From Chloroflexota bacterium (GTDB lineage Bacteria; Chloroflexota; UBA11872), in assembly GCA_965208215.1 (NCBI GenBank), contig CBDBOH010000003.1, positions 1,338,129-1,402,128 on the forward strand: a stretch of DNA of 64,000 nucleotides, written 5' to 3'. Below the pieces are notes generated by a model that had not been told where the DNA came from, searched no databases, and saw only the letters and a program-made list of their open reading frames with translations. The translations under genes and the position numbers were made by a program. Below, in pieces: positions 45,780 to 64,000 of this stretch; within the stretch, counting starts at the first letter, position 1, and the number at the start of each line of letters is the position of its first letter.

Positions 45780-45881
45780 CGGCGGCCCTTCAGTTTGAGA
45801 GTCAGCGCGAGGCCGTAATGGCCGCCGGGCCAGTCGCGGGATGCCCTTGACTTAGTAACGTGCCGCGCAACCTGCGGATCC

Positions 45882-45889
45882 TGTAGAAT
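45882..45889 (+). promoter_or_regulatory. Extended -10 promoter element TGTAGAAT
   Basis: TGn-TAGAAT ends 6-7 nt before the first base of the conserved leader (CAGTCGGG at 45896). Confidence 0.5.
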
Positions 45890-45895
45890 TATTTA

Positions 45896-46155
45896 CAGTC
45901 GGGTTTGCGAACGGCAATGCCGGACGGGTCGCAAAAGGACCGCCGGCAAATGATGGTCACGGGCCTGGGGTGAGGGTTGCGATGCCCCGGCAGCGCCCCG
46001 CGCAGGCGGGCCGCGGCTCCAGCCCGGGCTAGTGGGCGGGCCGCGAATCGCGAGATCTGCATCGTGGCTTGGTCCACCGCTGACGTCGAAATGGAAGCGG
46101 CGTCATACAAGCGCGCCCCGCGCGCAAGCCGGAGCGCAGAATCGGAGAGCCCGCT
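45896..46155 (+). ncRNA. Conserved ~260-nt 5' leader of paralog A (candidate cis-regulatory RNA)
   Basis: ~93% identical to the copy-2 leader although upstream DNA has diverged. GC-rich with hairpin-prone segments (GGGGTGAGGGTTGCGATGCCCCGG). Confidence 0.4.
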
Positions 46156-46797
46156 GTGAGATGGATCAGAACAATTGCCGTCGGACTGGCCGTGGCCCTC
46201 ACGGCCATCGCGCTCAGCGTCGGCCTCGTCACGGCCGATGACTGCAATCAGCCGGCCCCTGATGACTTTCGGTCCGACGTGGCCTGGGATGGAACGGGGC
46301 TGCATCATCAACCACAAGACGTGCAGGACCTGTTCAGCAGGGTCTGGGGGACCGACGACGATCTTCATGTCCGCACCTGGGCCTGGCAGCACAACTGCCG
46401 AACGCAGCCGCGCGAAGCGGCGGGCGACCCGGCGCACGGGTCCTCGATAAGCGACGATCAGGACGCCGCTGGAGCCTTGGGCAGCCTGGCCGGCCCCCAG
46501 CGGCAGTCGCTTTCCGAATCGAGGGTCAACCTTGCGAATGTGACCACGGGCGGCCCCTGCCGCAGTTCATCCTGGCCAAATCCGGATCAGAGGGAGCTCA
46601 TCGCTGCGGGCGAGTGGTATTTCTGCAATGAGAGCACCGGTGAATGGGTCCTGCGCAAGCGCGCGAGACCGTCGATCGACTACGCCACGGACGATCAGTT
46701 GGTGGCGCCCGAGGTTGGCCACTGTACGTCAGGCTTCACGCACTATGACCCAATTGCCCGGACCTGCATCCTGTATCCGGATGGGCCTGACGTGTAA
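46156..46797 (+). CDS. Secreted Cys-containing hypothetical protein, paralog A
   Basis: Signal peptide MRWIRTIAVGLAVALTAIALSVGLVTA. N-terminal ~90 codons near-identical to paralog B. Variable acidic linker. C-terminal ~60-aa domain with 4 conserved Cys (FCN...HYDPI..TC..YPDGPDV). Confidence 0.65.
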   Translation: MRWIRTIAVGLAVALTAIALSVGLVTADDCNQPAPDDFRSDVAWDGTGLHHQPQDVQDLFSRVWGTDDDLHVRTWAWQHNCRTQPREAAGDPAHGSSISDDQDAAGALGSLAGPQRQSLSESRVNLANVTTGGPCRSSSWPNPDQRELIAAGEWYFCNESTGEWVLRKRARPSIDYATDDQLVAPEVGHCTSGFTHYDPIARTCILYPDGPDV

Positions 46798-46987
46798 AGC
46801 CGAATAAGGGCCGCGTCGCCGACCGCGCAGTGTCCATCGAACTCCCCGGCGCCATCGCCAGCCGCCTGACCGCCTCGACATCTAACGCCGGCCATTTGGT
46901 TGGCGAGGCCGTGCGAGTCCGGGGCGGCCACCAGGTCTGGCGCGCGCTGCCGGTGATGCAGGCACGCGCGGCGCAGGCTGCGGAGCG

Positions 46988-46995
46988 TGTAAAAT
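46988..46995 (+). promoter_or_regulatory. Extended -10 promoter element TGTAAAAT (copy 2)
   Basis: Same position relative to the conserved leader (CAGTCGGG at 47001), although the surrounding promoter-proximal sequence has diverged. Confidence 0.5.
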
Positions 46996-47000
46996 CATGC

Positions 47001-47262
47001 ACAGTCGGGTTTGCGAACGGCAATGCCGGACGTGTCTCAAAAGGACCGCCGGCGAAACGATGGCACCGGGTCTGGGGTGAGGGTTGCGATGCCCCGGCCG
47101 CGCCCCGCGCAGGCGGGCCGCGGCTCCAGCCCGGGCTAGTGGGCGGGCCGCGAATCGCGAGATCTGCATCGTGGCTTGGTCCACCGCTGACGTCGAAATG
47201 GAAGCGGCGTCATACAAACGCGCCCCGCCCAGAAGCCGGAGCGCAGATTCGGGGAGCCCGCT
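47001..47262 (+). ncRNA. Conserved ~260-nt 5' leader of paralog B
   Basis: See 45896-46155. Confidence 0.4.
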
Positions 47263-47904
47263 GTGAGATGGATCAGGACAATTGCCGTTGGGCTGGCCGC
47301 GGCCCTTACGGCCATCGCGCTTAGCGTCGGCCTCGTCACGGCCGATGACTGCAATCAGCCGGCCCCTGATGACTTTCGGTCCGACGTGGCCTGGGATGGC
47401 ACGGGGCTGCATCATCAACCACAAGACGTGCAGGACCTGTTCAGCAGGGTCTGGGGGACCGACGACGATCTTCATGTCCGCACCTGGGCCTGGCAGCACA
47501 ACTGCCGAACGCAGCCGCGCGAATCGGCGGGCGACCCGGCGGACGAGTCCACGACAACCGACGATCAGGACGCCGATGACGACTCAAGTGGCCAGTCGGG
47601 CGGCGGGCGCGAAAAGCGTCCCGAATCGGGAGTCAACATGGCGCACGTGGCCACTCGAAGTCCCTGCCACGGCCAGACTCGGCCAAACATAACCACGGAG
47701 GAGGTCATCCAGGACGGCGCGTGGATTTTCTGCAATGCGGAAACCCGCCAGTGGTTCAAAGCCAGGCGTGTGATCCCGGGAGTCGACTATGCCGCGGACC
47801 ACCAGCTGGTGGCGCCCGGGGTTGGCAACTGTGCGGACGGCCAAACGCACTACGATCCCATCAGCAAAACCTGCATGTTCTACCCGGATGGGCCCGACGT
47901 GTAA
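47263..47904 (+). CDS. Secreted Cys-containing hypothetical protein, paralog B
   Basis: Same architecture as paralog A. The central region (DDQDADDDSSGQSGGG) differs. Confidence 0.65.
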   Translation: MRWIRTIAVGLAAALTAIALSVGLVTADDCNQPAPDDFRSDVAWDGTGLHHQPQDVQDLFSRVWGTDDDLHVRTWAWQHNCRTQPRESAGDPADESTTTDDQDADDDSSGQSGGGREKRPESGVNMAHVATRSPCHGQTRPNITTEEVIQDGAWIFCNAETRQWFKARRVIPGVDYAADHQLVAPGVGNCADGQTHYDPISKTCMFYPDGPDV

Positions 47905-50888: not shown

Positions 50889-50903
50889 TCACTCGCACTC
50901 CAC

Positions 50904-51074
50904 ATGGCACCATCCAACCCCACCCATCCCTCACCGACCCAACCCATGACCCCCGACTACGACTGGCAGTCCCTCCACAGCGACGCCCTCGTCATCGACT
51001 CCCACAACGACACCATCGCCGGCCTCATCCGCCCTGATGGCCAGAGCACCGCCGACCTCAGTTCTCGTCCTTAG
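50904..51074 (+). pseudogene. Truncated duplicate of the first ~47 codons of the M19 dipeptidase gene (52275..)
   Basis: MAPSNPTHPSPTQPMTPDYDWQSLHSDALVIDSHNDTIAGLIRPDGQS is ~90% identical to the N-terminus of the 52275 gene. It runs into a stop after 56 codons. Its TAG overlaps the TAA of the convergent NTase gene. Confidence 0.75.
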
Positions 51075-51739: not shown

Positions 51740-52122
51740 CGGGCAAGCAACCCTTGCACGAGGTCGACATACGTCTCAATCGTGCTCGCAGTGTCCTCAG
51801 GGTCCATTCCGACTGGGGCAGGTGTGTCTCCATAGGCCTGGTGTTTGCGCATGGTGTTCAGGTCGATGAGCACGTCGCCGATGTCAGGCAGGCCGTGCTC
51901 CTGGCTCAAAGACTCGGCAGCCTCCGCCTTCGCGAAGTGACTTCCGGGACGGGGCTGCCCTAGATGTAGAGCCGCGGCAACAATGCAGGCCTCAAGGCAA
52001 TACAGACCGTATGACGAAAGATCGGCCCAGTCCGGCGGATCCCACGATGCCTTTTGCACCCGTTCAAGGTGCGCCCGAGCGAGTCGGAGCGAATCCTCAG
52101 CGGATTGCTGCACCATGCTCAC
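51736..52122 (-). CDS. Putative HEPN-like helical protein partnered with the NTase
   Basis: 128-aa all-alpha protein overlapping the NTase start by 4 nt. No canonical R-x(4-6)-H motif seen. The call rests on context and helical profile. Confidence 0.45.
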   Translation of the reverse strand: MSMVQQSAEDSLRLARAHLERVQKASWDPPDWADLSSYGLYCLEACIVAAALHLGQPRPGSHFAKAEAAESLSQEHGLPDIGDVLIDLNTMRKHQAYGDTPAPVGMDPEDTASTIETYVDLVQGLLAR

Positions 52123-52274
52123 TTGCGTCCAGGTCCCTAGTCTGCTCTGAGTCTAGCGGCAGGCACGCTGCCCGATCGCGCTGCCTGCGCCGTGCTTCAT
52201 CAGATCCAAATACTCCAAATAAACCGTCTACGACTCGGATTCACCTCGCCTCGCTCGGTGCCCGCCCACCCCGC

Positions 52275-53351
52275 ATGGCACCATCCAACCCCACCCATCC
52301 CTCAACCAATCCAACTATGACCCCCGACTACGACTGGCAGTCCCTCCACCGCGACGCCCTCGTCATCGATTCCCACAACGACACCATCGTCGGCCTCATC
52401 CGCCGCGACGGCCAGAGCATGGCTGGGCCTGATGCCCCTGCCCGCCCCGAGCCTGAGAGCCTGATCGGCTACCTGCGCGGCCCGGTCGATACCGCCGAAA
52501 TCCCCATCCAGTCCGACCTCCCCGCCATGCGGGAAGGCGGCATTGACGCCGGCTACTTCGCCATCGACAACACCCGCGCCTGGGGCAACCACCTGGCCTA
52601 CGTGCTGGATGGCTTTGGCTGGTTCCACGCCGAACTCCAGGCCCATTCCGATCAGCTCGCCCTCGCCCTGACCGCAGACGACATCCTGGCCGCCAAGGCC
52701 GCCGGCAGGGTCGCCGCCGTCCTCGCCATCGAGAACTCCGAGGCCCTCGAACGCAGCCTCCACGTCCTGCCCATGCTCTACCGGGTCGGCGTCCGCACCA
52801 TGACCATCACCCACTCCATCCGCACCTTCGCCGGCGACGGCGAGAGCCACCACCACTCCGGCGGCGGCCTCACCCAATTCGGCCGCGACCTCATCGCCGC
52901 CATGAACGACCTCGGGATGCTGGTTGATGTCTCCCACCTCAGCGTCCCCGCCTTCTGGCACGCCATGCAGGCCACTAACGCTCCCGTCATCGCCAGCCAC
53001 AGCTCCTGCCGCGCCCTCAACGAGCACGGCCGCAACCTCCACGACGACCAGCTCAAGGCCATCGCCGACGGCGGCGGCGTCATCGGCGTCACCTGCGTCC
53101 ACCACTTCGTCGACACCCACAACCCCACCCTCGAGCGCTACCTCGACCACATCGAACACGCCGTCAACATCGCCGGCATCGACCACGTCGGCTTCGGCTC
53201 CGACTTCGACGGCGGCTCCTATCTCCTCGACGACGCCCGCCAGGTCCCCCTCGTCACCCAGGGCCTCGCCGCCCGCGGCTGGTCCGAACCCAACCTCCGC
53301 AAATTCCTCGGCCTCAACCACCTCCGCGCCTTCCGCGCCGCCTGCGGCTAA
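52275..53351 (+). CDS. Membrane dipeptidase (peptidase M19 family)
   Basis: DSHNDT motif and further conserved metal-binding blocks (HSIRTFAGDGESHH, VDVSHLS, IASHSSCRAL, GFGSDFDG). ATG 52275. Alternative start ATG 52317. The track ORF begins upstream at 52011. Confidence 0.85.
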   Translation: MAPSNPTHPSTNPTMTPDYDWQSLHRDALVIDSHNDTIVGLIRRDGQSMAGPDAPARPEPESLIGYLRGPVDTAEIPIQSDLPAMREGGIDAGYFAIDNTRAWGNHLAYVLDGFGWFHAELQAHSDQLALALTADDILAAKAAGRVAAVLAIENSEALERSLHVLPMLYRVGVRTMTITHSIRTFAGDGESHHHSGGGLTQFGRDLIAAMNDLGMLVDVSHLSVPAFWHAMQATNAPVIASHSSCRALNEHGRNLHDDQLKAIADGGGVIGVTCVHHFVDTHNPTLERYLDHIEHAVNIAGIDHVGFGSDFDGGSYLLDDARQVPLVTQGLAARGWSEPNLRKFLGLNHLRAFRAACG

Positions 53352-53386
53352 CCCTTACTCCGTTCATTCCCGGTCTGCAGAACGCT

Positions 53387-53411
53387 GTAGGGGTGCCCCT
53401 TGTGGGTACCC
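53387..53411. repeat. REP-like element, GTAG head plus palindrome (variant GTAGGGGTGCCCCTTGTGGGTACCC)
   Basis: 36 nt after the dipeptidase stop. Belongs to the family listed below. Confidence 0.7.
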
Positions 53412-53445
53412 TTTTCTCCCGGCTGCCTCCGGGCTGCTGTCACCC

Positions 53446-53832
53446 TCACTCCCGAATCACCCGCACCTCAACCCCAACATCCAACTCCCCCCACGCCCGA
53501 TCCGCCGTCACCGCCGGCAACCCCCGCAGCGCCGCCAGCTGCAGACACGCCCGATCCCCAAGCGACAGCCCAAGGCAGCGCGTGGACCGTCCAATACTTC
53601 CTGAGGCGAGCGCCTGAACGTCGTCGAAGCTGACAACGTCCAGATCCATCAGGGCAAGGACGTAGTGCCTCTGCTCTTGGGGCATCCCTTGCTCGGCAAG
53701 CTTGGAGGCAACCTCGGCGATATTGACCGCCGAGACCAGCGCGTCGCCCCGGTAGCCGTCAACGATCTCGGCGCCCGCCTCACTTCGGAGAACGGCCAGA
53801 ATCGCCGAGGAGTCCAAAACTGCGCGACTCAT
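53446..53832 (-). CDS. PIN-domain toxin (VapC-like)
   Basis: MSRAVLDSSAIL (first Asp), VNIAEV, and the C-terminal TADRAW motif. 128 aa. Confidence 0.8.
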   Translation of the reverse strand: MSRAVLDSSAILAVLRSEAGAEIVDGYRGDALVSAVNIAEVASKLAEQGMPQEQRHYVLALMDLDVVSFDDVQALASGSIGRSTRCLGLSLGDRACLQLAALRGLPAVTADRAWGELDVGVEVRVIRE

Positions 53833-54413
53833 TTAGACTCCGTTTCCGCAGCCTCAGCTGCTCTAGCCTGCCTCGCCTTGATCTCAGCAACTTCGGCCTC
53901 CTCCGCCGCAGCTTCCCGCCGTCGTTCCGCAATCAGCTCGTCCACGACGCTTACGCCTTCGGGAACATAGCGGGAGAGCACCTCTTGCATGCGCTTGAGC
54001 TCCTTGGCGTCGTTGGACACTCGCAGATCCTCACCGTCCATCTGCATCACGATGTAATCGCCCTCGTCAACCTCCAACGCCTTCCGATACGCGGCCGGGA
54101 TCACTACCCGCCCCCCTGGCCCAATCGCCATCCGCACTAGCACTGGCAATGAATCCTCGGACGTAAGAGCATCGGCTGGCATCGGCTGGCTGAGTTGGGT
54201 CTCTGTGAATCCGCTTCGTACGAGCACGTTTCGCACGTGCTGGTACCGAATGCCTAGGAATCCCGCGATCTCAGAGCGGCTGTACCCCGCGCGAAAGAGT
54301 GCCCGGATTTTGTCGGCCTTTGTCGTTAGGCCGTCCGCCACCTCGTCCATGGGCCGACGCTCGCATACGCAGACACAGGGATCCTGATCGCAGCTGCAGT
54401 CACAGCACTCCAT
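53829..54413 (-). CDS. AbrB/SpoVT-type antitoxin-like protein with an HTH domain and a Cys-rich N-terminus
   Basis: ATG 54413 preceded by AAGGAGA. N-terminal MECCDCSCDQDPCVCVCE. HTH-like KIRALFRAGYSRSEIAGFLGIRYQHVRNVL. Swapped-hairpin GRVVIPAAYRKALEVDEGDYIVM. 4-nt overlap with the PIN gene. Confidence 0.7.
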   Translation of the reverse strand: MECCDCSCDQDPCVCVCERRPMDEVADGLTTKADKIRALFRAGYSRSEIAGFLGIRYQHVRNVLVRSGFTETQLSQPMPADALTSEDSLPVLVRMAIGPGGRVVIPAAYRKALEVDEGDYIVMQMDGEDLRVSNDAKELKRMQEVLSRYVPEGVSVVDELIAERRREAAAEEAEVAEIKARQARAAEAAETESK

Positions 54414-54449
54414 TGTTAGTCTCCTTTCAGAGCAGTTTGGGAAGCCGTC

Positions 54450-54923
54450 CTAGCGGTTCCAGGGCGGCTTGAGGGCGGCGATCAATTCGCTCTCGACTGC
54501 CTCGCGAGCGCGCTTGCCTCCGTTTACCGGATAGAACCACAGAACGAAGTTCTCCTCTGTCGTGGTTCCCTGGTGGATCAGGCTGTTGATCCGGCAATTC
54601 GTTTCCTGTCCACCCTGGTAGCAGTTCTTCGGCGAGATTCGGCCGAAGCCATCGTTCCAGCGGCTCTGGAGGTTCTGGCACTCACCGACGTAAAGCGCCC
54701 GTCCGTCGCCATTCGTGAGAACGTAGACGCCACTCCCCCACCAGCCCTTCGGTATTCGAATGCGACCAAATGGTCCTCGTCCGTACTTGTGCAGCGGCAA
54801 ATCTCGCTCGTTGCGATACCTGGACTGCGGCATCTCGTCGATGGCCGCACCGCGCCTATCGCGCTCCGGTCGAATCCGCCCGACATGCAAGAACATGTAC
54901 CCGGCAATGCTGTGTTCATTCAT
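54450..54923 (-). CDS. GIY-YIG nuclease family protein (standalone, 157 aa)
   Basis: GVYVLTNGDGRALYVGECQNLQSRW has the GIY/YVG plus Arg core. A downstream glutamate (REAVESE) and Asn follow. Confidence 0.75.
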   Translation of the reverse strand: MNEHSIAGYMFLHVGRIRPERDRRGAAIDEMPQSRYRNERDLPLHKYGRGPFGRIRIPKGWWGSGVYVLTNGDGRALYVGECQNLQSRWNDGFGRISPKNCYQGGQETNCRINSLIHQGTTTEENFVLWFYPVNGGKRAREAVESELIAALKPPWNR

Positions 54924-55139
54924 CTCTACGGAGTCCTTTCGTAGGAGCTAGCACAACTAGACGGGCAGTTGCCACTAGATGATCCAGCCCATGACAGGCT
55001 GAATATCCAAGGATAGACAGAACTAAGGCTACTTGCCAACAGTATGGGTTATCTGACGCTGGTGGGTACGATTGGCTGCCTGATTCGCGCAACTCCCAAC
55101 TACACTGCCCTACCACCCCCCCCGCCGAGGCCCTCACCC

Positions 55140-56030
55140 ATGCAACGCCGCAAACTCGGCCGCGTCCACCACCACAGCTCCATCGTCACCCTCGGCGCCG
55201 CCGGCCTTGGCCGCGCCGACCTCCCCCAGGCCGTCGTCGACACCGCCGTCGAACAAGCCCTCGCCGCCAGCGTCAACCACCTCGATATCGCCCCCACCTA
55301 CGGCAACGCCATGGAACACATGGCCCCCTGGATGCCCCGCCTCCGCGACGAAGGCTGGTTCATCGGCGCCAAGACCCGCGGCCGCACCCGCCGGGAAGCC
55401 TGGGACAACATCCGCTCCTGCCAGCAACGCCTCGGCGTGGAGACATTCGACCTCTTCCAACTCCACTCCGTCGTCGATTTCGACGACCTCGACCAGGTCA
55501 CCCAACCCGGCGGCGGCCTCGAAGCCCTCCTCGAGATGCGCGACCAGGGCCTCACCCGCTACATCGGCATCACCGGCCACGGCCCCCTCGCCCCCGCCGT
55601 CCAGCTCGAGGCCCTCAACCGCTTCGACTTCGACACCGTCATGTTCCCCCTCGCCGCCGCCATCTACCTCAGCCCCGACTACCGGCGCGATGCCCAGGCC
55701 CTGCTGGATGCCTGCCAGCAACGCGACGTCGGCGTCCAGACCATCAAAATGCTCGCCCGCGGCGGCTGGGGCGACGGCCCCCAGGAACTCAGCTGCTGGT
55801 ACGACCCCCATCGCGACCAGCCCCAGATCGACCAGGCCCTCTGGTGGGTCCTCTCCCAGCCCGTCCACACCGCGCCCTCGACAGGCGAAACCACCCTCCT
55901 CCCCCGCATCTTCTCCGCCGCCAAACGCTTCCGCCCCCTCGATGCCGCCCAACAATCCGCCGCCATCGCCGCCCAACACCCCCCACGCCCCGAACCCCGC
56001 CTCGCCATCCCCGCCGCGGCAGTCCTCTAG
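55140..56030 (+). CDS. Aldo/keto reductase
   Basis: ATG 55140. AKR blocks (LDIAPTYGN, YIGITGHG). The track ORF begins upstream at 55044 in a C-rich tract. Confidence 0.85.
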   Translation: MQRRKLGRVHHHSSIVTLGAAGLGRADLPQAVVDTAVEQALAASVNHLDIAPTYGNAMEHMAPWMPRLRDEGWFIGAKTRGRTRREAWDNIRSCQQRLGVETFDLFQLHSVVDFDDLDQVTQPGGGLEALLEMRDQGLTRYIGITGHGPLAPAVQLEALNRFDFDTVMFPLAAAIYLSPDYRRDAQALLDACQQRDVGVQTIKMLARGGWGDGPQELSCWYDPHRDQPQIDQALWWVLSQPVHTAPSTGETTLLPRIFSAAKRFRPLDAAQQSAAIAAQHPPRPEPRLAIPAAAVL

Positions 56031-56043
56031 GACGTTCCAGTCC

Positions 56044-56068
56044 CGTAGGGGTACCCCTTGTGGGTACC
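56044..56068. repeat. REP-like element GTAGGGGTACCCCTTGTGGGTACCC
   Basis: 13 nt after the AKR stop. Contains the perfect 10-bp palindrome GGGGTACCCC plus GGGTACCC. Confidence 0.75.
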
Positions 56069-56115
56069 CATGGGCTCGATGCAGGGTCGCTTAGGCCACG
56101 CCCATCGTCGTACGC

Positions 56116-56328
56116 CTACGCGTCGGACTTCGACTGGTCTCCCCGCGTAGCGCCACCGTCTACCGGCCGCTGTCGCTTCGTACCTTGATAGAACAACCCG
56201 CGCTTGGCGCCCGACCAATCCAGCGTCTCGGGAATGTCCGACGTATCGATCTGGTCATCCGGCAACGCCTCAAGCGCATCAAGTTCGGCCCTCTCATCGT
56301 CAGTCAGGCCAGAATCTCTCGTGGTCAT
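56116..56328 (-). CDS. DUF4415-like small protein (BrnA-associated family), orphan
   Basis: ATG 56328 preceded by GAGGAGGG. MTTRDSGLTDDERAELDALEALPDDQIDTSDIPETLDWSGAKRGLFY resembles DUF4415. No BrnT partner is nearby. Confidence 0.5.
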   Translation of the reverse strand: MTTRDSGLTDDERAELDALEALPDDQIDTSDIPETLDWSGAKRGLFYQGTKRQRPVDGGATRGDQSKSDA

Positions 56329-56366
56329 AAGCCCTCCTCGCACGCGTCGTTCCTTCCCGTACCCTC

Positions 56367-57143
56367 ATGCCACCGGAGCACAGAGGACTAGCTGTGGGCG
56401 ATTCTCAAGCAGCAGCCACGAGTGACCGCACGCCACTGCCCGCCTCCCTGTCCCAGCACTACCGCTGGCTCCTCACCCTCCCTACCCCACCGCCCCAGCG
56501 CCTCCTCGACGTCGGCGCCGGCGACGGCCGCCTCCTCCAGGTCGCCCGCGACCTCCGCATCCCCCACCTCGTCGGCCTGGAGCGCAAGCGCCGCTGGCGC
56601 CCCGCCAGCCCCGACTTCGCCCCCACCATCGGCGACGCCCAGCGCCTCCCCTTCCCCAACGACACCTTCGACTGCGTCGTCGAAAACGAATCCCTCGAGT
56701 GGATCACGCAGCCAGTCCACTTCCTCCGCGAAGCCTCCCGCGTCTGCGCCACCCACGGCTGCATCCTCACCGACGACTCCGACTGGGACACCCTCGTCTA
56801 CGCCGTCCAGGACACCGCCCGCGCCCGCCGCATCCTCCGGACCTTCGGCGACACCGGCCCCAACGGCTGGATCGGGCGCAACGCGCCTTCCCTCATGCGG
56901 CAGTCAGGTCTGCGCGACATCCAGGTCCACGTCCGCGTCATCACCGAACGCGAATTCACCCCCCACACCCTCGGCTACCACCAGGCCCAGGTCATCGACG
57001 ACTGGCTCCGCACCGTCGGCGACATCACCCCCACCCAACTCGACGACTTCCACGCCGACCTCCACCACACCGCCCAGCGCGGCGACTACCTCTTCACCCT
57101 CAACCGCTACATCTGCTTCGGTCACCCAGTCCAGCGCTCGTAG
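56367..57143 (+). CDS. Class I SAM-dependent methyltransferase
   Basis: Motif I LLDVGAGDGRLL. Post-I acidic residue and motif II (DTFDCVV). Confidence 0.8.
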   Translation: MPPEHRGLAVGDSQAAATSDRTPLPASLSQHYRWLLTLPTPPPQRLLDVGAGDGRLLQVARDLRIPHLVGLERKRRWRPASPDFAPTIGDAQRLPFPNDTFDCVVENESLEWITQPVHFLREASRVCATHGCILTDDSDWDTLVYAVQDTARARRILRTFGDTGPNGWIGRNAPSLMRQSGLRDIQVHVRVITEREFTPHTLGYHQAQVIDDWLRTVGDITPTQLDDFHADLHHTAQRGDYLFTLNRYICFGHPVQRS

Positions 57144-57147
57144 CACC

Positions 57148-57172
57148 GTAGGGGTACCCCTTGTGGGTACCC
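57148..57172. repeat. REP-like element GTAGGGGTACCCCTTGTGGGTACCC
   Basis: 4 nt after the methyltransferase stop. Confidence 0.75.
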
Positions 57173-57179
57173 ACCGCCC

Positions 57180-57398
57180 CTAGCGCCTCGGCCCCTTATC
57201 CGCCAGCGACATCGCAATCACCAACCCAATCGGCCCCAGGAAAAACCCCACAAAAAACCAGATTGGAACCCACAAGTTCCCCCACACCTCCGGCTCGTCC
57301 TTCTTCGACGCCACCCGCGACGTCGCCCACCCAAACCCAACCGCCACCACAAAAAACACAAAAAACAACGGCTCCGGAACCGACACTGAGCTACCCAC
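57180..57398 (-). CDS. Small hypothetical membrane protein
   Basis: 72 aa with two hydrophobic helices, sitting between two REP copies. Weak. Confidence 0.3.
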   Translation of the reverse strand: MGSSVSVPEPLFFVFFVVAVGFGWATSRVASKKDEPEVWGNLWVPIWFFVGFFLGPIGLVIAMSLADKGPRR

Positions 57399-57401
57399 GT
57401 C

Positions 57402-58583
57402 TTGTCCTCAACGCCGAAAGTCTACGCACCCCTTCTCCATTGGCCTGCCCATCCCGTAGGGGTACCCCTTGTGGGTACCCATTGCCCCGGCAGCACGCAC
57501 CCTCCAACCACGTATCCTTCCCCCACCACATCACCGCCAATCCCGAATCCCATCCACTTCCCCTTCGCCCAATTCACCGGCACCCCCTACGACCTCGGCC
57601 TCCAACACGGCCAGCGCTTCCGCGACCTCGTCCGCCTCCAGCTCGCGGAAACCATGCAAGGCGCCGCGGACAGCGGCCTCACCGCCGCCGCCGCGCTCCA
57701 GTGGACCCGCCAGCAGCAACCTGCGGTCGAGGCCATAGGCCCCCACTGGATCGACGAGCTCCAGGGCCTCGCCCACGGCGCCGGCATCCAATTCGACGAA
57801 GCCCTCGCCCTCCAGCTCCGCCCCGGCGCCGGCGGCCTCCCCGAAGGCTGCACCTCATTCGCCGCCGTTGGATCCGCAACCACCGACCGCCAGACCATCT
57901 GCGGCCAGAACCGCGACCTTGGCGAGCCCTACCTCCACCGCATGTTCCTCGCCGCGTTCAGGCCCACCCGTGGCCCCCACATCCTCATGCACTGCGTGCC
58001 CGGCGAAATCGGCGGCGTCGGCCTCAACAGCCGTGGCGTCTGCGTCTTCGCCAACTCCCTCTGGGGCAAATCCGGTCGAACCTGGATGGCCCCGCCCATC
58101 CTCCGCCGCGCCGCCCTCGAAAGCGCCACGGCCGAATCTGCCACCCAGCGAATCCGTGCCATGTCCGGCCCCGCCGTCGGCAACTTTCTGGTCGCCGACA
58201 CCCGCCACGCCCGCAACCTCGAAATCCTGGCCGAAGGCCTCCACGTCACCGAAGTCGACGACGGCGTCTACGCCCACGCCAACAACTGCACCGCCTCAAT
58301 CCTCCTCCCCCACCAAGCCACCCGCCGGCCCCTCCCCTACTCCGAAGGCCGACGCGCCTCCCTACAAACCGCCCTTGAGACCCACTCCGGCTCAATCGAT
58401 ACCGATGTTTGCCGCCACCTCCTCAGCGACGAATCAGGCCGCCCCGAACCCGTCTGCCGCCCCTTCCGTTCCGGCGACCCCTTCGCCACCATCGCCGCCC
58501 TCATCGCCGTCCCCCACACCCAAACCCTCCACCTCAGCCACGGCCCCCCATCCAACAACCACTTCACCGCCTACCGCCTGTAG
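57402..58583 (+). CDS. Peptidase C45 / acyl-CoA:6-APA acyltransferase-like N-terminal-nucleophile hydrolase (start unresolved)
   Basis: Autoprocessing/nucleophile motif GCTSFAAVGS, plus conserved N-terminal region PYDLGLQHGQRFRD. The only upstream in-frame starts are TTG 57402 and GTG inside the REP. The N-terminus as drawn is a P/T/S-rich tract. Confidence 0.6.
   Translation: MSSTPKVYAPLLHWPAHPVGVPLVGTHCPGSTHPPTTYPSPTTSPPIPNPIHFPFAQFTGTPYDLGLQHGQRFRDLVRLQLAETMQGAADSGLTAAAALQWTRQQQPAVEAIGPHWIDELQGLAHGAGIQFDEALALQLRPGAGGLPEGCTSFAAVGSATTDRQTICGQNRDLGEPYLHRMFLAAFRPTRGPHILMHCVPGEIGGVGLNSRGVCVFANSLWGKSGRTWMAPPILRRAALESATAESATQRIRAMSGPAVGNFLVADTRHARNLEILAEGLHVTEVDDGVYAHANNCTASILLPHQATRRPLPYSEGRRASLQTALETHSGSIDTDVCRHLLSDESGRPEPVCRPFRSGDPFATIAALIAVPHTQTLHLSHGPPSNNHFTAYRL
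57456..57480. repeat. REP-like element GTAGGGGTACCCCTTGTGGGTACCC
   Basis: Lies inside the 5' end of the track ORF for the C45 gene. Confidence 0.75.
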
Positions 58584-58607
58584 GGGCGGGATTCAAACCC
58601 GCCCGTC
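58580..58607. repeat. REP-like element GTAGGGGCGGGATTCAAACCCGCCCGTC
   Basis: Its GTAG overlaps the TAG stop of the C45 gene. Stem GGCGGG/CCCGCC. Confidence 0.7.
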
Positions 58608-58641
58608 GTCTCCGCCATCCCGGCGTCCCAGGCCGTCTTCT

Positions 58642-58670
58642 GTAGGGGCGGCGTCTGAGACCCGCCCGTC
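58642..58670. repeat. REP-like element GTAGGGGCGGCGTCTGAGACCCGCCCGTC
   Basis: Same GTAGGGG head with a GC hairpin. Confidence 0.7.
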
Positions 58671-58842
58671 TTCCGCGCACCCAGCCACCCCGTCAAACTC
58701 ACAATCCCAGGCGCACCGACCTGCCCTACCCCTCCTGCCCCCTCTCTTTCCCACTCCTGGCCTCGCACCATCCGGTGGTGAGCCGCCCCGGAGTCCTTCG
58801 GAGGGGCGTGTCGAACCACACCCCCGTGACATCCCCCCGGTC

Positions 58843-58866
58843 GTAGGGGCCGGTCCCCGACCGGCC
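58843..58866. repeat. REP-like element GTAGGGGCCGGTCCCCGACCGGCC
   Basis: Same head. Stem GGCCGG/CCGGCC. The surrounding 58700-58990 region carries further short direct repeats (CTGCCCTGAGCT twice; GGTGAGCCG twice). Confidence 0.65.
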
Positions 58867-58992
58867 TCTTCCGCCCACCCCGTTCGTGGTGAGCCGGACC
58901 GCCGTCCCCGGCGACCCGTCGAACCTGCCCTGAGCTAGTCGAAGAAGGGCCTGCCCTGAGCTTGTCGACGGGAACCACACCCCCCGCCACCC

Positions 58993-61900
58993 TCACGCCG
59001 CCTGCGTCACCGTAATCGTCACCGTCGTCGTCGCCGACGGGCTGTCGCGGCTGGTGCTGGCTTTGATGGTGAGGCTGTAGCTGGACGTGGTGGCGTGGCT
59101 CAGTTGGGCGCCCACCGCCAGGGTTCCGGCCAGCGCGTCCACCGCCCAGTGGCCGGCGGCGTTGCCCGCCGTGATGTCGTAGACCACCGTCGCCCCTTCC
59201 GGATCCGTGGCCGTCACCGTCCCGATCTTCGTGCCGATCAGCACGTCCTCCGCCACGCTGAAGCTGTACGAGGTCGCCCCGAAGACCGGCGCCTTGTCCG
59301 GCTTCGTCACCGTGATCGAGATCGTCGCGGTGGCCGTCCCGCCGGCCGCGTCGCTGACCGTGACCGTCAGGCTATAGCTGCTGGTGGTAGTGCGGTCCAG
59401 CGTCCCCGCCACCGTCAGCGCCCCCGTGCTGGAGTTGAGCGCAAAGTCCCCGGCGTCATTGCCCGCCGTCAGCGCATAGGTCAGCGTCCCGCTTTCCGGG
59501 TCGGTCGCCGTCACCGTGCCCACGGCCGCCCCCACGGCCGCGTCGTCGTCCACGCGGAAGCTGTAGCTGGTCGCGCCGAACGCCGGCGCCTCGTCCACGT
59601 CCGTCACCGTCACGGCTGCCCCCACCGTCGCGCTGGCCGTGGCCGTGCCGCTGTGGCTGGTGGCGCCGACGGTCAGGCTATGGCTGGCGGTCGTCTCGTA
59701 GTCCAGCGCCCCCGCCACCGTCAGCGCCCCGGTCGCGGCGTCGATCGCGAACGTCCCGGCGTCATTGCCCGCCGTGATCGTGTACGTCACCGCCTCGCCT
59801 TCCGGGTCCGTCGCGCTGACCGTGCCCACGGCCGCCCCTGCCGCCGCGTCCTCCGCCACCGACCATGCGTAGCTCTCCGCCCCGAACACCGGCGGGAAGG
59901 CCGCGTTCGTCACCGTGATGGCCACGTCCGCCGTGCCCGTGTGGCCCGCGGCGTCGCTGGCCGTCACCGTCAGGTTGTAGTCGTCCGCCGTCTCGTAATC
60001 CAGCGTGCCCGCCACCGTCAGCGCGCCGCTGTCCGCGTCCAGCGCAAAGGCCCCCGCCTCATTGCCCGCCGTGATGGCATAGGTCAGGTCGCCGGCCTCG
60101 GGGTCGGTCGCGCTGACCGTGCCCACCGCCGCGTCCGTGGCCGCGTCCTCGGCCACTGAGAACTCGTAGTCCGCGGTCCCGAACGCCGGCGCCTCGTCCA
60201 CGTCCGTCACCGTCACCGTCGCCGTGACCGTCGCTTGGCTGCCCCCCGCGCGGGCCTCCACGGTCAGCGCGTGACTGGCGCTGGCCTCGTGATCCAGCGT
60301 CCCCGCCACCGTCAGCGCCCCGGTCGCGGCGTCGATGGCGAAGCCTCCGGCGTCGTTGCCCGCGGTGATGGCGTACGTCACTGAGTCCGACCCCGTGGTC
60401 GTGGCCGCCACCGTCCCCACGGCGGTGGCCGCGGCGCTGTTTTCGGCCACGCTGAACGCATAGGACTCCGCCCCAAACACCGGCGGCGGACACGCCCCGG
60501 TGGTCGCCGCCAGGGCCGTCGAGGGGGCGCTCCAGGCGTTGGTGTAGCCCGCCCCGCTGCCAAACGCCCGCACCTGGACCTCGTAGGCCGTCGCGCAGGT
60601 CAGGTCGGCCAGCGTGGTGCTGGCGGTGGTCAGGTCATCCGCCGCCGTCGTCCAGGCCTCGGCGCCGCTGGTCCGGGAGTCCACCTGGTACTTCGTGGCC
60701 CCGGTCACCGCGTCCCACCTGAGCGCCAGGCTGGTGGCCGCCGGCGTGGCCGCCACGTTGGCCGGCGCCGGCGGCGCGTCCTCCACGTCCGTCACCGTCA
60801 CGTTCACCGTGGTCGTGGACGTCAGGCGGCTGCCTTCCAGGACGCCGGCCCGCACCGTCAGCGTGTAGGTCGCCGTGGTTTCGTAGTCCAGCCAGTTGGC
60901 CACCACCAGCCGCCCGGCCAGCGCATCCACCGCCCACTGGCTGGCCGTATCGCCCGCCGTGATGTCATAGATCACCGTCCCGCCTTCGGGGTCGCTCGCC
61001 GCCACCGCGCCGATCGCGGCGCCGATCGGGGCGTCCTCCGCGACGCTGAACGCATAGCTGTCCGCCCCGAAGACCGGCGGCTCGTCCACGTTCGTCACCG
61101 TGATCGTCACCGGGACCACGGTGGCGGCCGCCGGGCCGCTGCGGGCTTCGACGGTCAGGTGATAGGTGGGCGCGGTCTCGTAATCCAGGGTCCCCGCCAC
61201 CTTCAACTCGCCGGTCGTGGCATCGATCGCCCACACGTCGTCCGTGGTGCCCGCCGTCAGCGTGTGCGTGACCGCCGCCCCGCCGGCCACGGTGGCCCGG
61301 ATCGTTCCGATCTGGATGGCGACGGCCGTGTCCTCGGCCACCGTGAAGGCGTAGCTGGCCGCCCCGAAGACCGGCTGCGGGGGCACGTCGAGTACCGTCA
61401 CGGTCACCGTGGTCGTGGCCGTGCCGCCGTGGGCGTCGGTGGCCGTCAGGGTCAGCGTGTAGCTGGGCGTCGTCGCGTGGTCCAGCGCCCCCGCCACCGT
61501 CAGCTGGCCGGAGGTTGTGTCCAGGGCAAAGGCGCCGCCGGTGGTGCCGGCCGTCAGCGCATAGGTCAGCGGGCCGCCGTCGAGGTCGCGGGCCGCGGCC
61601 GTCCCCACCAGCGTGCCCACCGCCGCGTCCTCGGCCACGCGGAAGGTCCAGCCGCCCGCCGGGAACAGCGGCGGCGCGCGCTGCCGGACCGCGTCGGCTA
61701 CCCCCACCGCCACCGGGACGCGCGAGACGCCGCCCCGCGCGTCCGTGGCCGTGACCGTGAGGCTGGCCCCGCCCGCCGGCAGCGTCCCGGCCACCGAAAG
61801 GACGCCGGTGCTCGCGTCCAACTTGAACACCCCGGCGTCGTTGCCCGCCGTGATGGCGTAGGTGACCGTCCCGCCGCCCGGATCGGTGGCCTGTACCTGG

Positions 61901-64000
61901 CCAATGGCCGCGCCCACCGGCAGCCCGGCCGGCACGATCCACTCGTAGCGCGGCGCCCCGAAGGCCGGGCCCGCCTGGCAGGCGGCCAGGCCCTGCGCCG
62001 CCGCGTCCGTGGTCGTCACCGCCGCTAAGGTCCCCGGCAGGCAACCCGTCAGCCGGGTGCCGCCCAGTCGCAGCTCCGTCAGCCGCGTCAGGGTCCCCAG
62101 GGCCTCGGGCACGTCGCCGGTCAGCGCGTTGCCGCGCAGGTCCAGCGCGGTCAGCTGGGTCAGGTCGCCCAGCGCCGCCGGCACGGGCCCGGTCAGGCCC
62201 TGCGCGCCCAGCCGCAGCCCGGTCACGCGCTGCGGCGTGCCGCCCACGGTCACCCCGGTCCAGGCGCTGAGCGCGCGCGTCCCGTCCCAGTTCAGGCGGC
62301 CGGGCCCGGCCAGCGCGTCGCGCGCCGCCAGCAGGGCCGCGCAGTCCTGCACCAGGCCGGTATTGGTGGTGGGATTGGGCACCGTGACCCCGTTGCTGCA
62401 CGGGGCCGAGGCCGGCGCCGGCCAGCTCAGCGTCACCGGCGCCGAGTGGGCCAGGGCGCCCGAGGCGTAGCGGGCCTGCACCCGCCAGGTGCCGGTGATG
62501 GCCGTCAAGGCACGCGCCCCGTAACTGGCGCCCGCGGCGCCCACCGGCGTCCAGACCCCGCCCACGTCGCGCTGCCACTGGTAGGTCGCCGCGCCCGCGT
62601 CGGCGGGCACGGCCGCCGTCAGGGTCGCGGTGGCGCCGGCCGCCGGCGAGGCCGCATCGACCGTCACCGTGGGCAGGGCGGGGGCGCCGGGGCAGGCCGG
62701 GGCCGCCGGCGGGGCGCCCGCCGGGGCGGCACTGATCCGCAGCATCAGGCGCTCGCCCGGCTGCCAGGGTTGCGTACACACCGGCCAGCGCAGCTCGTGG
62801 CCGCCCGCCGTGGCCGTGCGCGCGGCGGCGTCGCCGCGCAGCGTCAGCCCCACCGTGCCGTCCAGCCGGATCAGCTCCAACTGCTGGCCGGCCAGGGTCG
62901 TCCCGGCCACGTCCAGCCGCAACTGCCCCGCGTCCCAGGTCAGCCGCCGCAGGGTCGCGGCCGATGTGCTGGCCCCGCTGGCCCCGCGGCTCGCCGCAGC
63001 GGCCGCGGCGTCGCCGGCGACGCCGACCGCCGCCGGCGCCAGCACCCCCTGCGCGGCGTCCCGCCCGACCACCCCGCTGCCCAGCGCCGCCGGATCGAAG
63101 AACGCCTCGTGCACCGTCCCCGCCGGCGCCGTGACCGTGACGGTGAAATGACCGTAGGCGTCGTCAGGTACGAAATTGCAGACAAAGCGCGTGTACTGCT
63201 GGGAATTGTAGAAGACGTCGTACTCGCCGGCCGGCAATGGGCGCGCCGCGACCAGGAGGTGGTCGTAGCCGGTGCTGGCTTGGCCGTCGTCGTCGCTGAT
63301 TCGCACCTCGAATTGCGCCGCGTTCGGGCCACTGAGCCAGTAACGGCTGTACTCGGGATCGTCATGCGCATTGGTCCCGCGACTCAACTCGGTCGCCGCC
63401 GCCGACCCGGAGGGAATCGTCACTGCTTCCTGCAATGGCGTCCACGGGTCGGCACGGTTATATCGTTCACGGAGGACTCTGCCGTAGAGGCAGCCTGCGT
63501 ACCCATCAATGCCTTCCCCGGCCTTCAGTTCCGCCTCCATCGTCGCGATCCGGGCCCGCAGGTCAACGAGGGTAATGGTGGGCGGCGGTGATTGCGCGCC
63601 GTCCGTGATGAAGGACGTTGGTACCTCGCCCTCGGCCGGCGTGTCCTGCGCCGGCAACCAGGCCCGGCTCAGCGTGTCCACGCTGTAGGCCCACGGCGGT
63701 TGGTCGTAGTTCGATAACACGAACTGCCAGGCGGACGGGGTGTACGGCCGCGACGGCGTCTCCAGGAAGAGCACCGCCTGCCGCGCGTCCCAGGTCGAGA
63801 CCCGCGCCTGCACGGTCCAGTCCGCGAAGTCGCGGGCCTCGGCCTCCACCGGGTTCGCGTGCCGACCGCGCACCACCACCAGCAGGTCGGTTGGGCCGCT
63901 GCCCTTCAGGTACTCGTGCACCGCGAAGCGCAACTCCTGGACCGACAGGTAGGTGGGCGCGACGCCGGGGTCGCTGGGCAGCGTCTCCGTCGTCGCCGTC
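58993..64000 (-). CDS. Giant cell-surface protein with LRR, ~10 cadherin-like repeats and an FN3 domain (N-terminus beyond the window)
   Basis: Frame is open to the window edge, more than 1,660 aa. Leucine-rich repeats (LTGPVPAALGDLTQLTALDLRGNALTGDVP). Repeated ~100-aa cadherin-like units (PVFGAESYAFSVAED...VTYAITAGNDAG.FAID..TGALTVAGTLDYET...YTLTV.A.D). An FN3-like segment (LALRWDAVTGATKYQV). Stop at 58993. Confidence 0.85.
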   Translation of the reverse strand, partial: TATTETLPSDPGVAPTYLSVQELRFAVHEYLKGSGPTDLLVVVRGRHANPVEAEARDFADWTVQARVSTWDARQAVLFLETPSRPYTPSAWQFVLSNYDQPPWAYSVDTLSRAWLPAQDTPAEGEVPTSFITDGAQSPPPTITLVDLRARIATMEAELKAGEGIDGYAGCLYGRVLRERYNRADPWTPLQEAVTIPSGSAAATELSRGTNAHDDPEYSRYWLSGPNAAQFEVRISDDDGQASTGYDHLLVAARPLPAGEYDVFYNSQQYTRFVCNFVPDDAYGHFTVTVTAPAGTVHEAFFDPAALGSGVVGRDAAQGVLAPAAVGVAGDAAAAAASRGASGASTSAATLRRLTWDAGQLRLDVAGTTLAGQQLELIRLDGTVGLTLRGDAAARTATAGGHELRWPVCTQPWQPGERLMLRISAAPAGAPPAAPACPGAPALPTVTVDAASPAAGATATLTAAVPADAGAATYQWQRDVGGVWTPVGAAGASYGARALTAITGTWRVQARYASGALAHSAPVTLSWPAPASAPCSNGVTVPNPTTNTGLVQDCAALLAARDALAGPGRLNWDGTRALSAWTGVTVGGTPQRVTGLRLGAQGLTGPVPAALGDLTQLTALDLRGNALTGDVPEALGTLTRLTELRLGGTRLTGCLPGTLAAVTTTDAAAQGLAACQAGPAFGAPRYEWIVPAGLPVGAAIGQVQATDPGGGTVTYAITAGNDAGVFKLDASTGVLSVAGTLPAGGASLTVTATDARGGVSRVPVAVGVADAVRQRAPPLFPAGGWTFRVAEDAAVGTLVGTAAARDLDGGPLTYALTAGTTGGAFALDTTSGQLTVAGALDHATTPSYTLTLTATDAHGGTATTTVTVTVLDVPPQPVFGAASYAFTVAEDTAVAIQIGTIRATVAGGAAVTHTLTAGTTDDVWAIDATTGELKVAGTLDYETAPTYHLTVEARSGPAAATVVPVTITVTNVDEPPVFGADSYAFSVAEDAPIGAAIGAVAASDPEGGTVIYDITAGDTASQWAVDALAGRLVVANWLDYETTATYTLTVRAGVLEGSRLTSTTTVNVTVTDVEDAPPAPANVAATPAATSLALRWDAVTGATKYQVDSRTSGAEAWTTAADDLTTASTTLADLTCATAYEVQVRAFGSGAGYTNAWSAPSTALAATTGACPPPVFGAESYAFSVAENSAAATAVGTVAATTTGSDSVTYAITAGNDAGGFAIDAATGALTVAGTLDHEASASHALTVEARAGGSQATVTATVTVTDVDEAPAFGTADYEFSVAEDAATDAAVGTVSATDPEAGDLTYAITAGNEAGAFALDADSGALTVAGTLDYETADDYNLTVTASDAAGHTGTADVAITVTNAAFPPVFGAESYAWSVAEDAAAGAAVGTVSATDPEGEAVTYTITAGNDAGTFAIDAATGALTVAGALDYETTASHSLTVGATSHSGTATASATVGAAVTVTDVDEAPAFGATSYSFRVDDDAAVGAAVGTVTATDPESGTLTYALTAGNDAGDFALNSSTGALTVAGTLDRTTTSSYSLTVTVSDAAGGTATATISITVTKPDKAPVFGATSYSFSVAEDVLIGTKIGTVTATDPEGATVVYDITAGNAAGHWAVDALAGTLAVGAQLSHATTSSYSLTIKASTSRDSPSATTTVTITVTQAA
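59010..61900 (-). repeat. Intragenic ~290-300-bp tandem repeats encoding the cadherin-like domains
   Basis: Recurrent PVFGA(E/T)SY(A/S)F(S/T)VAED blocks at ~100-aa spacing in the translated product. Confidence 0.6.

Follow-up and report, generated by a model that had tools for sequence, protein, structure and literature searches.

Hairpin repeats clustered at gene ends in an uncultured Chloroflexota genome are very probably GTAG-tagged REPs of the TnpA_REP subclass 2.4 kind

We analysed a 64-kb stretch of the genome of an uncultured Chloroflexota bacterium (contig CBDBOH010000003.1, positions 1,338,129 to 1,402,128; hereafter the window), which carries seven short hairpin-forming repeats with a common GTAGGGG head. 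An earlier note, made from the letters alone, had likened them to repetitive extragenic palindromes (REPs), the elements mobilised by REP-associated tyrosine transposases (RAYTs). The gene order around them was derived from Pfam assignments and the coordinates of open reading frames (ORFs). On the + strand lie genes for an M19 dipeptidase (52011-53351), an aldo-keto reductase (AKR; ending at 56030), a methyltransferase (56367-57143) and a C45/AAT acyltransferase-like protein (ending at 58583). Interleaved with them on the - strand are PIN (53446-53832), MazE-like (53829-54413) and GIY-YIG (54450-54923) genes, ORFs of 75 aa (56116-56343) and 72 aa (57180-57398), and a gene for a giant cadherin-repeat protein (58993-63933).

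Four of the repeats are copies of one 25-mer, GTAGGGGT(A/G)CCCCTTGTGGGTACCC, which direct reading of the window places at 53387-53411, 56045-56069, 57148-57172 and 57456-57480 (REP1 to REP4), all on the + strand; the same four had been reported before, with the second start at 56044, which is corrected here. These four are the only matches to the pattern GTAGGGGTRCCCCTTGTGGGTACCC in the window; 100 shuffles gave none, and no further copy was found in the 64 kb at up to three mismatches. REP1 (GTAGGGGTGCCCCTTGTGGGTACCC) is the G variant, with a G.T wobble in its stem, and lies 35 nt 3′ of the dipeptidase TAA, with 34 nt separating it from the stop of the convergent PIN gene. REP2 (GTAGGGGTACCCCTTGTGGGTACCC) lies 14 nt 3′ of the AKR TAG; REP3 and REP4 are identical to it, REP3 following the TCG-TAG stop of the methyltransferase gene by 4 nt and REP4 occupying a divergent gap at the 5′ end of the C45/AAT gene. 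The convergent gaps that hold REP1, REP2 and REP3 measure 94, 85 and 36 nt. Beyond ∼4 nt, the flanks of the four 25-mers are mutually unrelated.

Three further elements have the same head and other hairpins, as had been described: REP5 (58580-58604, +; GTAGGGGCGGGATTCAAACCCGCCC), REP6 (58642-58667, +; GTAGGGGCGGCGTCTGAGACCCGCCC), 58 nt 3′ of the C45/AAT stop, and REP7 (58843-58868, +; GTAGGGGCCGGTCCCCGACCGGCCTC), 259 nt 3′ of that stop and with a 9-bp stem and a 3-nt loop. The GTAG of REP5 overlaps the C45/AAT stop codon, sharing its TAG (58581-58583), and the single GTAG/TAG overlap that had been claimed is therefore real. All seven elements lie on the + strand, where chance predicts none, and six of them are found 3′ of a + strand gene in convergent gaps. 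The earlier count of five elements within 0-36 nt of a stop comes to four here, at 0-35 nt 3′ of the stop of a real same-strand gene (gaps of 35, 14, 4 and 0 nt); the copy at 57456 does not follow a stop codon. The GTAGGGG heptamer occurs 13 times in the window against 4.97 expected, a number reached by 1 of 100 shuffles; at seven of these 13 sites a hairpin starts directly after the GTAG, and the other six have none. The base immediately 5′ of the GTAG is C or T in all seven elements.

At REP4, the maximal ORF of the C45/AAT gene (57402) crosses the 25-mer in frame as VGVPLVGT. There is no ATG, GTG or TTG between REP4 and the conserved N-terminus (57402-57560), and the GTG of the REP loop is in frame. 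At the corresponding locus of a close relative (L123), an ATG abuts the 3′ end of REP4 (GGGTACCC|ATG); the window has ATT there, and the frame change makes the ORF cross the REP.

Every element presents an unpaired GTAG followed, after 0-1 nt, by a GC-rich stem of 6-9 bp (7/7). Folded as single-stranded DNA (ssDNA), the seven range from -6.8 kcal/mol (REP1) to -10.2 kcal/mol (REP7), with z-scores of -2.2 to -3.5 against shuffles; folded as RNA, as the earlier note had proposed, 45-nt stretches starting at each GTAG reach -17 to -21 kcal/mol. The working hairpin of the 25-mer is more than the 10-nt palindrome and consists of an 8-bp stem formed by GGGTRCCC and GGGTACCC around a CTTGT loop. The palindrome GGGGTACCCC, previously given as perfect in every copy, is so in three of the four; the copy at 53387 reads GGGGTGCCCC. 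With G in place of A, the GTAG strand forms a G.T wobble where the complement has an A.C mismatch, because of which the REP1 complement folds worse (-5.0 versus -6.8 kcal/mol). At its base the stem has three G-C pairs (GGG...CCC) in six elements and G.T, G-C and G-C in the 58843 copy; REP5 carries a stem mismatch.

For covariation, variants from other genomes were picked by head and loop only, with the 3′ arm left free and all matches to the original pattern excluded. Central stem positions of these variants were complementary in 110 of 124 cases. In an alignment of 29 sequences, 92% of cells were paired, four of the eight pairs had changed on both sides and there were 20 double-change cells; none of 500 shuffles reached 92%, and sliding the partner by 1-3 columns gave ≤ 56%. 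The stems thus covary freely while head and loop stay fixed. By these alignments, selection maintains the hairpin structure, with compensatory changes among family members.

We scanned one genome per species with the pattern GTAGGGGTRCCCCNNNNGGGTRCCC, in which four positions were free, and obtained at least 120 loci with at least 128 copies; the counts given here refer to the 120 loci and 128 copies among the matches listed. Although the positions were free, nearly all copies had the loop TTGT, TCGT or TTGC. Exactly GTAGGGGTGCCCCTTGTGGGTACCC was found in 63 of the 128 copies, and the commonest cross-phylum form has GGTGCC in its first arm. The 25-mer is near-identical in at least ∼14 bacterial phyla. 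By record titles, its hosts include Cyanobacteria (many of them Chamaesiphon), Planctomycetota and several Chloroflexota classes; Desulfobacterota, Pseudomonadota, Campylobacterota, Thermotogota and Patescibacteria; and Bacteroidota, Fibrobacterota, Lentisphaeria, Acidobacteriota, Binatia and Trueperaceae. Host loci vary in GC content from 37% to 73%. Contamination or mis-binning was considered as a source of the cross-phylum matches and rejected, as the loci differ in their flanks, in host GC and in their RAYT proteins (47-63% identical). Carriage by phages is not supported, because no copy of the 25-mer was found in 2.9 million viral contigs.

The placement seen in the window recurs in these genomes. 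Twenty-one per cent of the copies lie within 60 nt after a same-strand stop (ORFs of ≥ 120 codons), compared with 6% of random positions (3.4-fold), and an opposite-strand stop is found within 60 nt of 15% of copies, compared with 4%. The element itself supplies the TAG stop in five of 128 copies and at none of 2560 random positions, and 42% of copies fall inside long ORFs versus 81% at random. Inverted doublets of the 25-mer occur in Chamaesiphon and within RAYT genes. A second scan, of metagenomes with the pattern GTAGGGGCGGGNNNNNNNCCCGCCC (the GGGCGGG...CCCGCCC type), gave at least 120 loci and at least 168 copies. Among the matches listed, the commonest loops were TTTCAAA and TTTGAAA, which are those of the 58580 type, followed by TCTCAGA and TCTGAGA, the core of the 58642 element; 62 of the 168 copies were double-foot forms ending in CTAC.

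Some copies elsewhere belong to larger repeats. The 25-mer has conserved flanks on both sides, as part of a longer composite repeat, in two sets of loci (L013, L018, L042 and L065; L037, L051, L062 and L094), the hosts being an Anaerolineales metagenome-assembled genome (MAG) and several Dehalococcoidia MAGs. Locus L110 (5905-6690) has three 25-mers within a 380-nt tandem unit, and L151 (1500-2000) a tandem array of five double-foot GTAGGGGCGGG...CCCGCCCCTAC copies at a spacing of ∼100-130 nt.

An all-against-all comparison of ORFs revealed one protein that recurs beside the 25-mer, at nine of the 120 listed loci and in at least six phyla; a hidden Markov model (HMM) built from seven of these proteins found the same nine loci and no others. 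The protein is a Y1_Tnp (PF01797) transposase whose best NCBIfam match is the REP-associated tyrosine transposase (REP_Tyr_transpos; 63-65 bits, against a cut-off of 80), and it carries the motifs MPNHFHGI, LWQRNYYEH and EYIxNNP. The combination NH[IFV]H / WQ / YIxNNP is the signature of TnpA_REP subclass 2.4, which equals RAYT group 4 of Bertels and colleagues (Quentin et al., 2018, PMC6006769). This is a huge family (7993 of 8000 candidates pass) whose members often bear the JGI label 'REP element-mobilizing transposase RayT'. Five of the nine loci have the 25-mer within the gene, in frame and just after the HuH motif (GTA GGG GTG CCC CTT GTG GGT ACC, encoding VGVPLVGT), and in several of these intragenic cases it has an inverted partner that reads GQPQGIAPT; at the other four, a copy lies just outside the RAYT gene, either flanking it in the classical manner or in an adjacent gene fragment. 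The REP5 type shows the same association, with RAYT homologues at five of the 120 listed metagenome loci: in L140, an element in frame after the HuH motif reads RAGLEPAPT and a second copy follows the stop codon, and in L184 inverted copies bracket the RAYT gene. Across phyla, the catalytic cores of the RAYTs are 47-63% identical as protein and 57-71% as DNA, while the REP they carry is identical at 24-25 of 25 nt. Judging from these sequences, such near-identity on diverged cores suggests either that the REP sequence is very strongly constrained or that it is renewed repeatedly, and would fit horizontal movement of a RAYT gene together with its internal REPs.

To follow individual sites, we compared the window with loci of related genomes. 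The C45 protein shares 89% identity with one from a 'Chloroflexi bacterium' MAG, and the methyltransferase 79-87% with proteins of Chloroflexota MAGs. The order M19 gene, variable cassette, reductase, small ORF, methyltransferase, small ORF is common to L123-L127 and L248, with the C45 gene next in that order only in L123 and L124; the DNA of the AKR gene is 95-96% identical to the window in L123 and L125. Against this background the elements are gained, lost and replaced site by site. The site at 53387, after the dipeptidase gene, is half replaced in L123, absent in L125 and has a mutated head (GTAGCGG) in L248. The copy at 56045, after the reductase gene, is identical in L123 and L125-L127, and a BrnT/BrnA cassette takes its place in L124 and L248. 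At 57148, after the methyltransferase gene, L123 retains a decayed element; in L125 the site is taken by a different REP (GTAGGGGCGCTTCGCGAAGCGCCC), its GTAG overlapping the stop, and in L124 by a decayed element of the 58642 type that likewise overlaps the stop. The methyltransferase gene ends in ...G TAG in the window and in L123, L124 and L125, which keep this C-terminus, and the stop itself therefore forms the GTAG. The copy at 57456, before the C45 gene, is identical in L123, and a double-foot element lies at the equivalent place in L124. On the C45 stop (58580), L121 and L123 carry an orthologue (GTAGGGGCGGGTTTCAAACCCGCCC), and L122 is empty, reading CTC TAG GAAAAAACC without GTAG or hairpin. 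Copies related to REP6 occur in L122 and L123.

Confinement of the family to this one locus, which the earlier note had named as the finding that would speak against REPs, is not what we observed: relatives carry the element at other loci, and in a closed relative genome the syntenic locus at ∼1.14 Mb and another intact 25-mer at ∼0.26 Mb are ∼0.9 Mb apart.

Cassettes also vary around these sites. In the slot between the M19 and AKR genes (53446-54923) each relative has a different toxin-antitoxin cassette: PIN, MazE-like and GIY-YIG in the window, two PIN-MazE pairs in L124 and MazE only in L125. The gap between reductase and methyltransferase genes holds BrnT/BrnA in L248 and BrnA in L124. 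The stretch from the M19 gene to the methyltransferase gene looks like a cassette-exchange hotspot bordered by REPs, a part of an uncultured Chloroflexota genome in which small elements and toxin-antitoxin cassettes turn over.

The elements have clear counterparts among described repeats. Di Nocera et al. (2013, PMC3733652) defined GTAG-tagged REPs as a super-family of 24 families from Proteobacteria, Cyanobacteria, Chloroflexi and the PVC group, with G.T pairs in the stem and GTAG ends that 'often provide the stop codon (TAG)'. Most of them follow an ORF, in gaps where the two genes converge or run in the same direction, and occasional copies sit inside genes. The repeats described here share with them the unpaired terminal GTAG on a stem of 6-13 bp, the G.T stem pairs, the supply of TAG stops, the downstream placement with occasional intragenic copies, and the presence in Chloroflexi, Cyanobacteria and Planctomycetes. 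The Chloroflexi family GTAG-23 (Thermomicrobium, Roseiflexus) of the same study apparently differs from the 25-mer in its stem, judged by the encoded peptides.

Closer still are the canonical long REPs of subclass 2.4, which have a GTAG foot, three consecutive G-C pairs at the stem base and double-foot forms (Quentin et al., 2018, PMC6006769). Our elements resemble them in the 5′ GT[AG]G at the hairpin foot, in the GGG/CCC base, in the presence of double-foot forms (GTGG ... CCAC) in the same intergenic region and in the NH[IFV]H / WQ / YIxNNP motifs of the transposase linked to the 25-mer elsewhere. REPs within a RAYT gene have also been published already. The tabulated REP of a Chloroflexus aurantiacus subclass 2.4 gene, GTAGGGGCGGGTTCTAAACCCGCCC, closely matches the REP5 type, with the loop alone differing (PMC6006769). 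In the same table GTAGGGGT(G/A)CCCCTTGTGGGTACCC does not occur, and no entry starts with GTAGGGGTGCCCC or GTAGGGGTACCCC (PMC6006769); literature searches for the repeat sequences as strings gave chance matches or none. Group 4 RAYTs are known from 17 bacterial classes, are common in Cyanobacteria, Chlorobia and Caldilineae and have low-copy flanking repeats (Bertels et al., 2017, PMC5581495). A patchy distribution over many phyla, including Cyanobacteria and Chloroflexi (Caldilineae), and apparently a low copy number are features that the 25-mer and the subclass 2.4 (group 4) systems have in common (PMC6006769, PMC5581495).

The E. coli REP/BIME system is alike in its GTAG plus hairpin, and its enzyme serves here as the mechanistic model: TnpA_REP needs ssDNA, the GTAG and the hairpin for binding and cutting, and cuts at C|T (Ton-Hoang et al., 2012, PMC3333891). 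In contrast to the 25-26-nt window elements, which are unpaired and often have a perfect stem or a single G.T pair, E. coli REPs are 30-40 nt long, need a stem mismatch, are mostly paired as BIMEs and depend on a subclass 2.2 enzyme (PMC3333891). Pseudomonas REPINs, like the present repeats, are short palindromic repeats, and depend on a usually single-copy RAYT (Bertels and Rainey, 2011, PMC3116915); unlike them, they are inverted doublets, vertically inherited and species-specific, whereas the window copies are singletons with a sequence common to many phyla (PMC3116915).

Taken together, the seven elements are very probably GTAG-tagged REPs of the canonical long kind, cognate to TnpA_REP subclass 2.4 (RAYT group 4), in keeping with the REP/RAYT architecture first suspected. 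The GTAG at the foot of a GC-rich hairpin, the extragenic position, mostly downstream of ORFs in convergent gaps, the covarying stems, the 25-mer flanking or inside Y1-transposase genes of other genomes, the enrichment after stops and the turnover of sites in relatives all argue for this assignment. A RAYT would then have acted, or may still act, in this lineage. By analogy with the E. coli enzyme, the GTAG-bearing strand would fold into its hairpin on ssDNA, and the RAYT would bind GTAG and hairpin foot and cut and rejoin nearby ssDNA at C|T, thereby copying or moving elements. The elements would survive mainly in short gaps after gene ends, where insertion is tolerated, and in a gene ending in ...G TAG the stop codon itself supplies the GTAG. 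Once transcribed, the hairpins would form stable structures at mRNA 3′ ends and might protect or modulate the messages.

Several observations weigh against this assignment. No RAYT gene was found by tblastn or the RAYT HMM in the 64-kb window, as the earlier note had stated, or in 117 kb of the relatives' loci, and this lineage differs in that respect from subclass 2.4 systems. It differs from them as well in that all seven copies are single and on the same strand: none has the inverted partner that would make a REPIN or BIME, the presumed mobile unit. The elements are regionally clustered, all seven lying within 5.5 kb, because ∼8 other convergent junctions of the window (on a rough gene map) carry none. 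Finally, the perfect conservation of orthologous copies is uninformative on selection, because the relatives are so close (95-96% in the AKR gene). The negative RAYT search lends some weight to the possibility, which we consider real if clearly the lesser one, that the repeats are orphans, spread by an ancestral RAYT since lost and now immobile relics kept by drift or as mRNA 3′-end hairpins. Such a history would suit the decaying copies (REP3 in L123, REP1 in L248, the remnants in L124 and the stem mismatch in REP5 of the window), and it has precedents in genomes with REPs but without tnpA_REP (PMC6006769) and in the low copy number, ∼14 per replicon, of the 16-mers that flank group 4 genes (PMC5581495). 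The RAYT search, however, covered ∼180 kb, against genome sizes of 3.5-3.8 Mb in this lineage, and the different REP subtypes found on the same stop codon in different relatives suggest recent turnover.

Explanations that dispense with REPs fare much worse. That the hairpins evolved in the host as terminators or mRNA-stabilizing 3′ structures, with no connection to a transposase, would account for the four elements 0-35 nt after stops in short convergent gaps and for the stability of the 45-nt RNA folds, yet we regard it as very improbable: an identical 25-mer could not have arisen independently at unrelated loci and in ∼14 phyla with host GC of 37-73%, nor would independent evolution place it inside RAYT genes, and the 57456 copy sits at a gene 5′ end. 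The elements were rejected as intrinsic (Rho-independent) terminators on the hairpin plus T-run criterion, with no T-tract in any of them and 0/7 flagged by a terminator scan. Slighter still are the chances of two further ideas. The VGVPLVGT reading of the 25-mer, in frame both within RAYT genes elsewhere and in the ORF at 57402, might suggest that the 25-mers are leftover pieces of degraded RAYT genes and not free-standing REPs; tblastn and the RAYT HMM, run over the whole window, detected nothing RAYT-like beside them, and past ∼4 nt the four sets of flanks are unrelated. One or two GGTACC palindromes per 25-mer could likewise indicate binding sites of a regulator or clustered KpnI-type restriction-modification sites, but the GGTGCC of the commonest cross-phylum form destroys one such site, it is the stems that vary and the head and loop that are fixed, and the elements sit after genes and not at promoters. 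An IS200/IS605 element or a miniature derivative was also rejected, given single 25-nt hairpins without paired ends and no Y1 transposase homologue in the window. Rfam returned three matches for 53000-59200, all sub-threshold and unrelated.

On the REP assignment, the finding adds to a known REP/RAYT type, its mildly unusual point being the near-identity of the 25-mer across ∼14 phyla; a near-identical REP on diverged RAYT cores goes somewhat beyond the descriptions cited here. The usual account of RAYT/REP systems has them passed on vertically and limited to single species, and a letter-identical subclass 2.4 REP that ranges from cyanobacteria to Thermotogota offers a tractable case in which to study horizontal spread and helps to define which part of a REP its transposase reads. 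We tentatively speculate, and would not put it higher, that a RAYT gene with its in-frame REPs forms one horizontally transferred package that re-seeds each new genome with ready substrates, the REP sequence (head, GGG/CCC foot and CTTGTG loop) being its most strongly selected part; the lineage of the window would have been seeded in this way and might by now be orphaned. For annotation, the assignment explains the conserved gene-end hairpins of this genome, three genes of which have stop codons ≤ 15 nt from a stable hairpin. In E. coli, a stop codon this close to a hairpin is reported to affect translation termination and mRNA decay.

The common orientation of the seven elements may reflect a replication-strand bias or co-orientation with the upstream genes. 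The GC skew is negative nearly throughout the window regardless of gene strand and is strongest (-0.2 to -0.33) at 52-60 kb, around the REPs.

The last elements had been described as crowding a convergent intergenic region together with additional repeats, and 58584-58992 does hold further repeats: this 409-nt gap before the cadherin gene is filled by REP6, REP7 and two longer elements. The first (58775-58819, +) is a double-foot element of the form GTGGTGAGCC-[hairpin]-GTGTCGAACCAC, with 5′ GTGG ... CCAC 3′ ends, and the second (58886-58978, +), also double-foot, is interrupted by two tandem GCCCTGAGCT(A/T)GTCGA units (∼58926-58972). A literature search for the double-foot and GCCCTGAGCT sequences as strings found none. 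The type of the first element also occurs in the relatives L113, L122 (twice), L124 and L125, and the interrupted nesting of the second is repeated in L125. More widely, the double-foot and GCCCTGAGCT unit families recur in L113, L122, L124, L125, L055 and L119, sometimes nested alike.

The window also contains two local duplications: 45766-46247 versus 46872-47354, with 77-94% identity and probably representing tandem paralogous genes, and 50896-51048 versus 52267-52419, with 90% identity. The cadherin protein encoded at 58993-63933 has > 1,600 residues and at least nine cadherin domains, which a periodic repeat of ∼297 nt encodes; in L248, a homologue of this cadherin gene is found close to the same neighbourhood.

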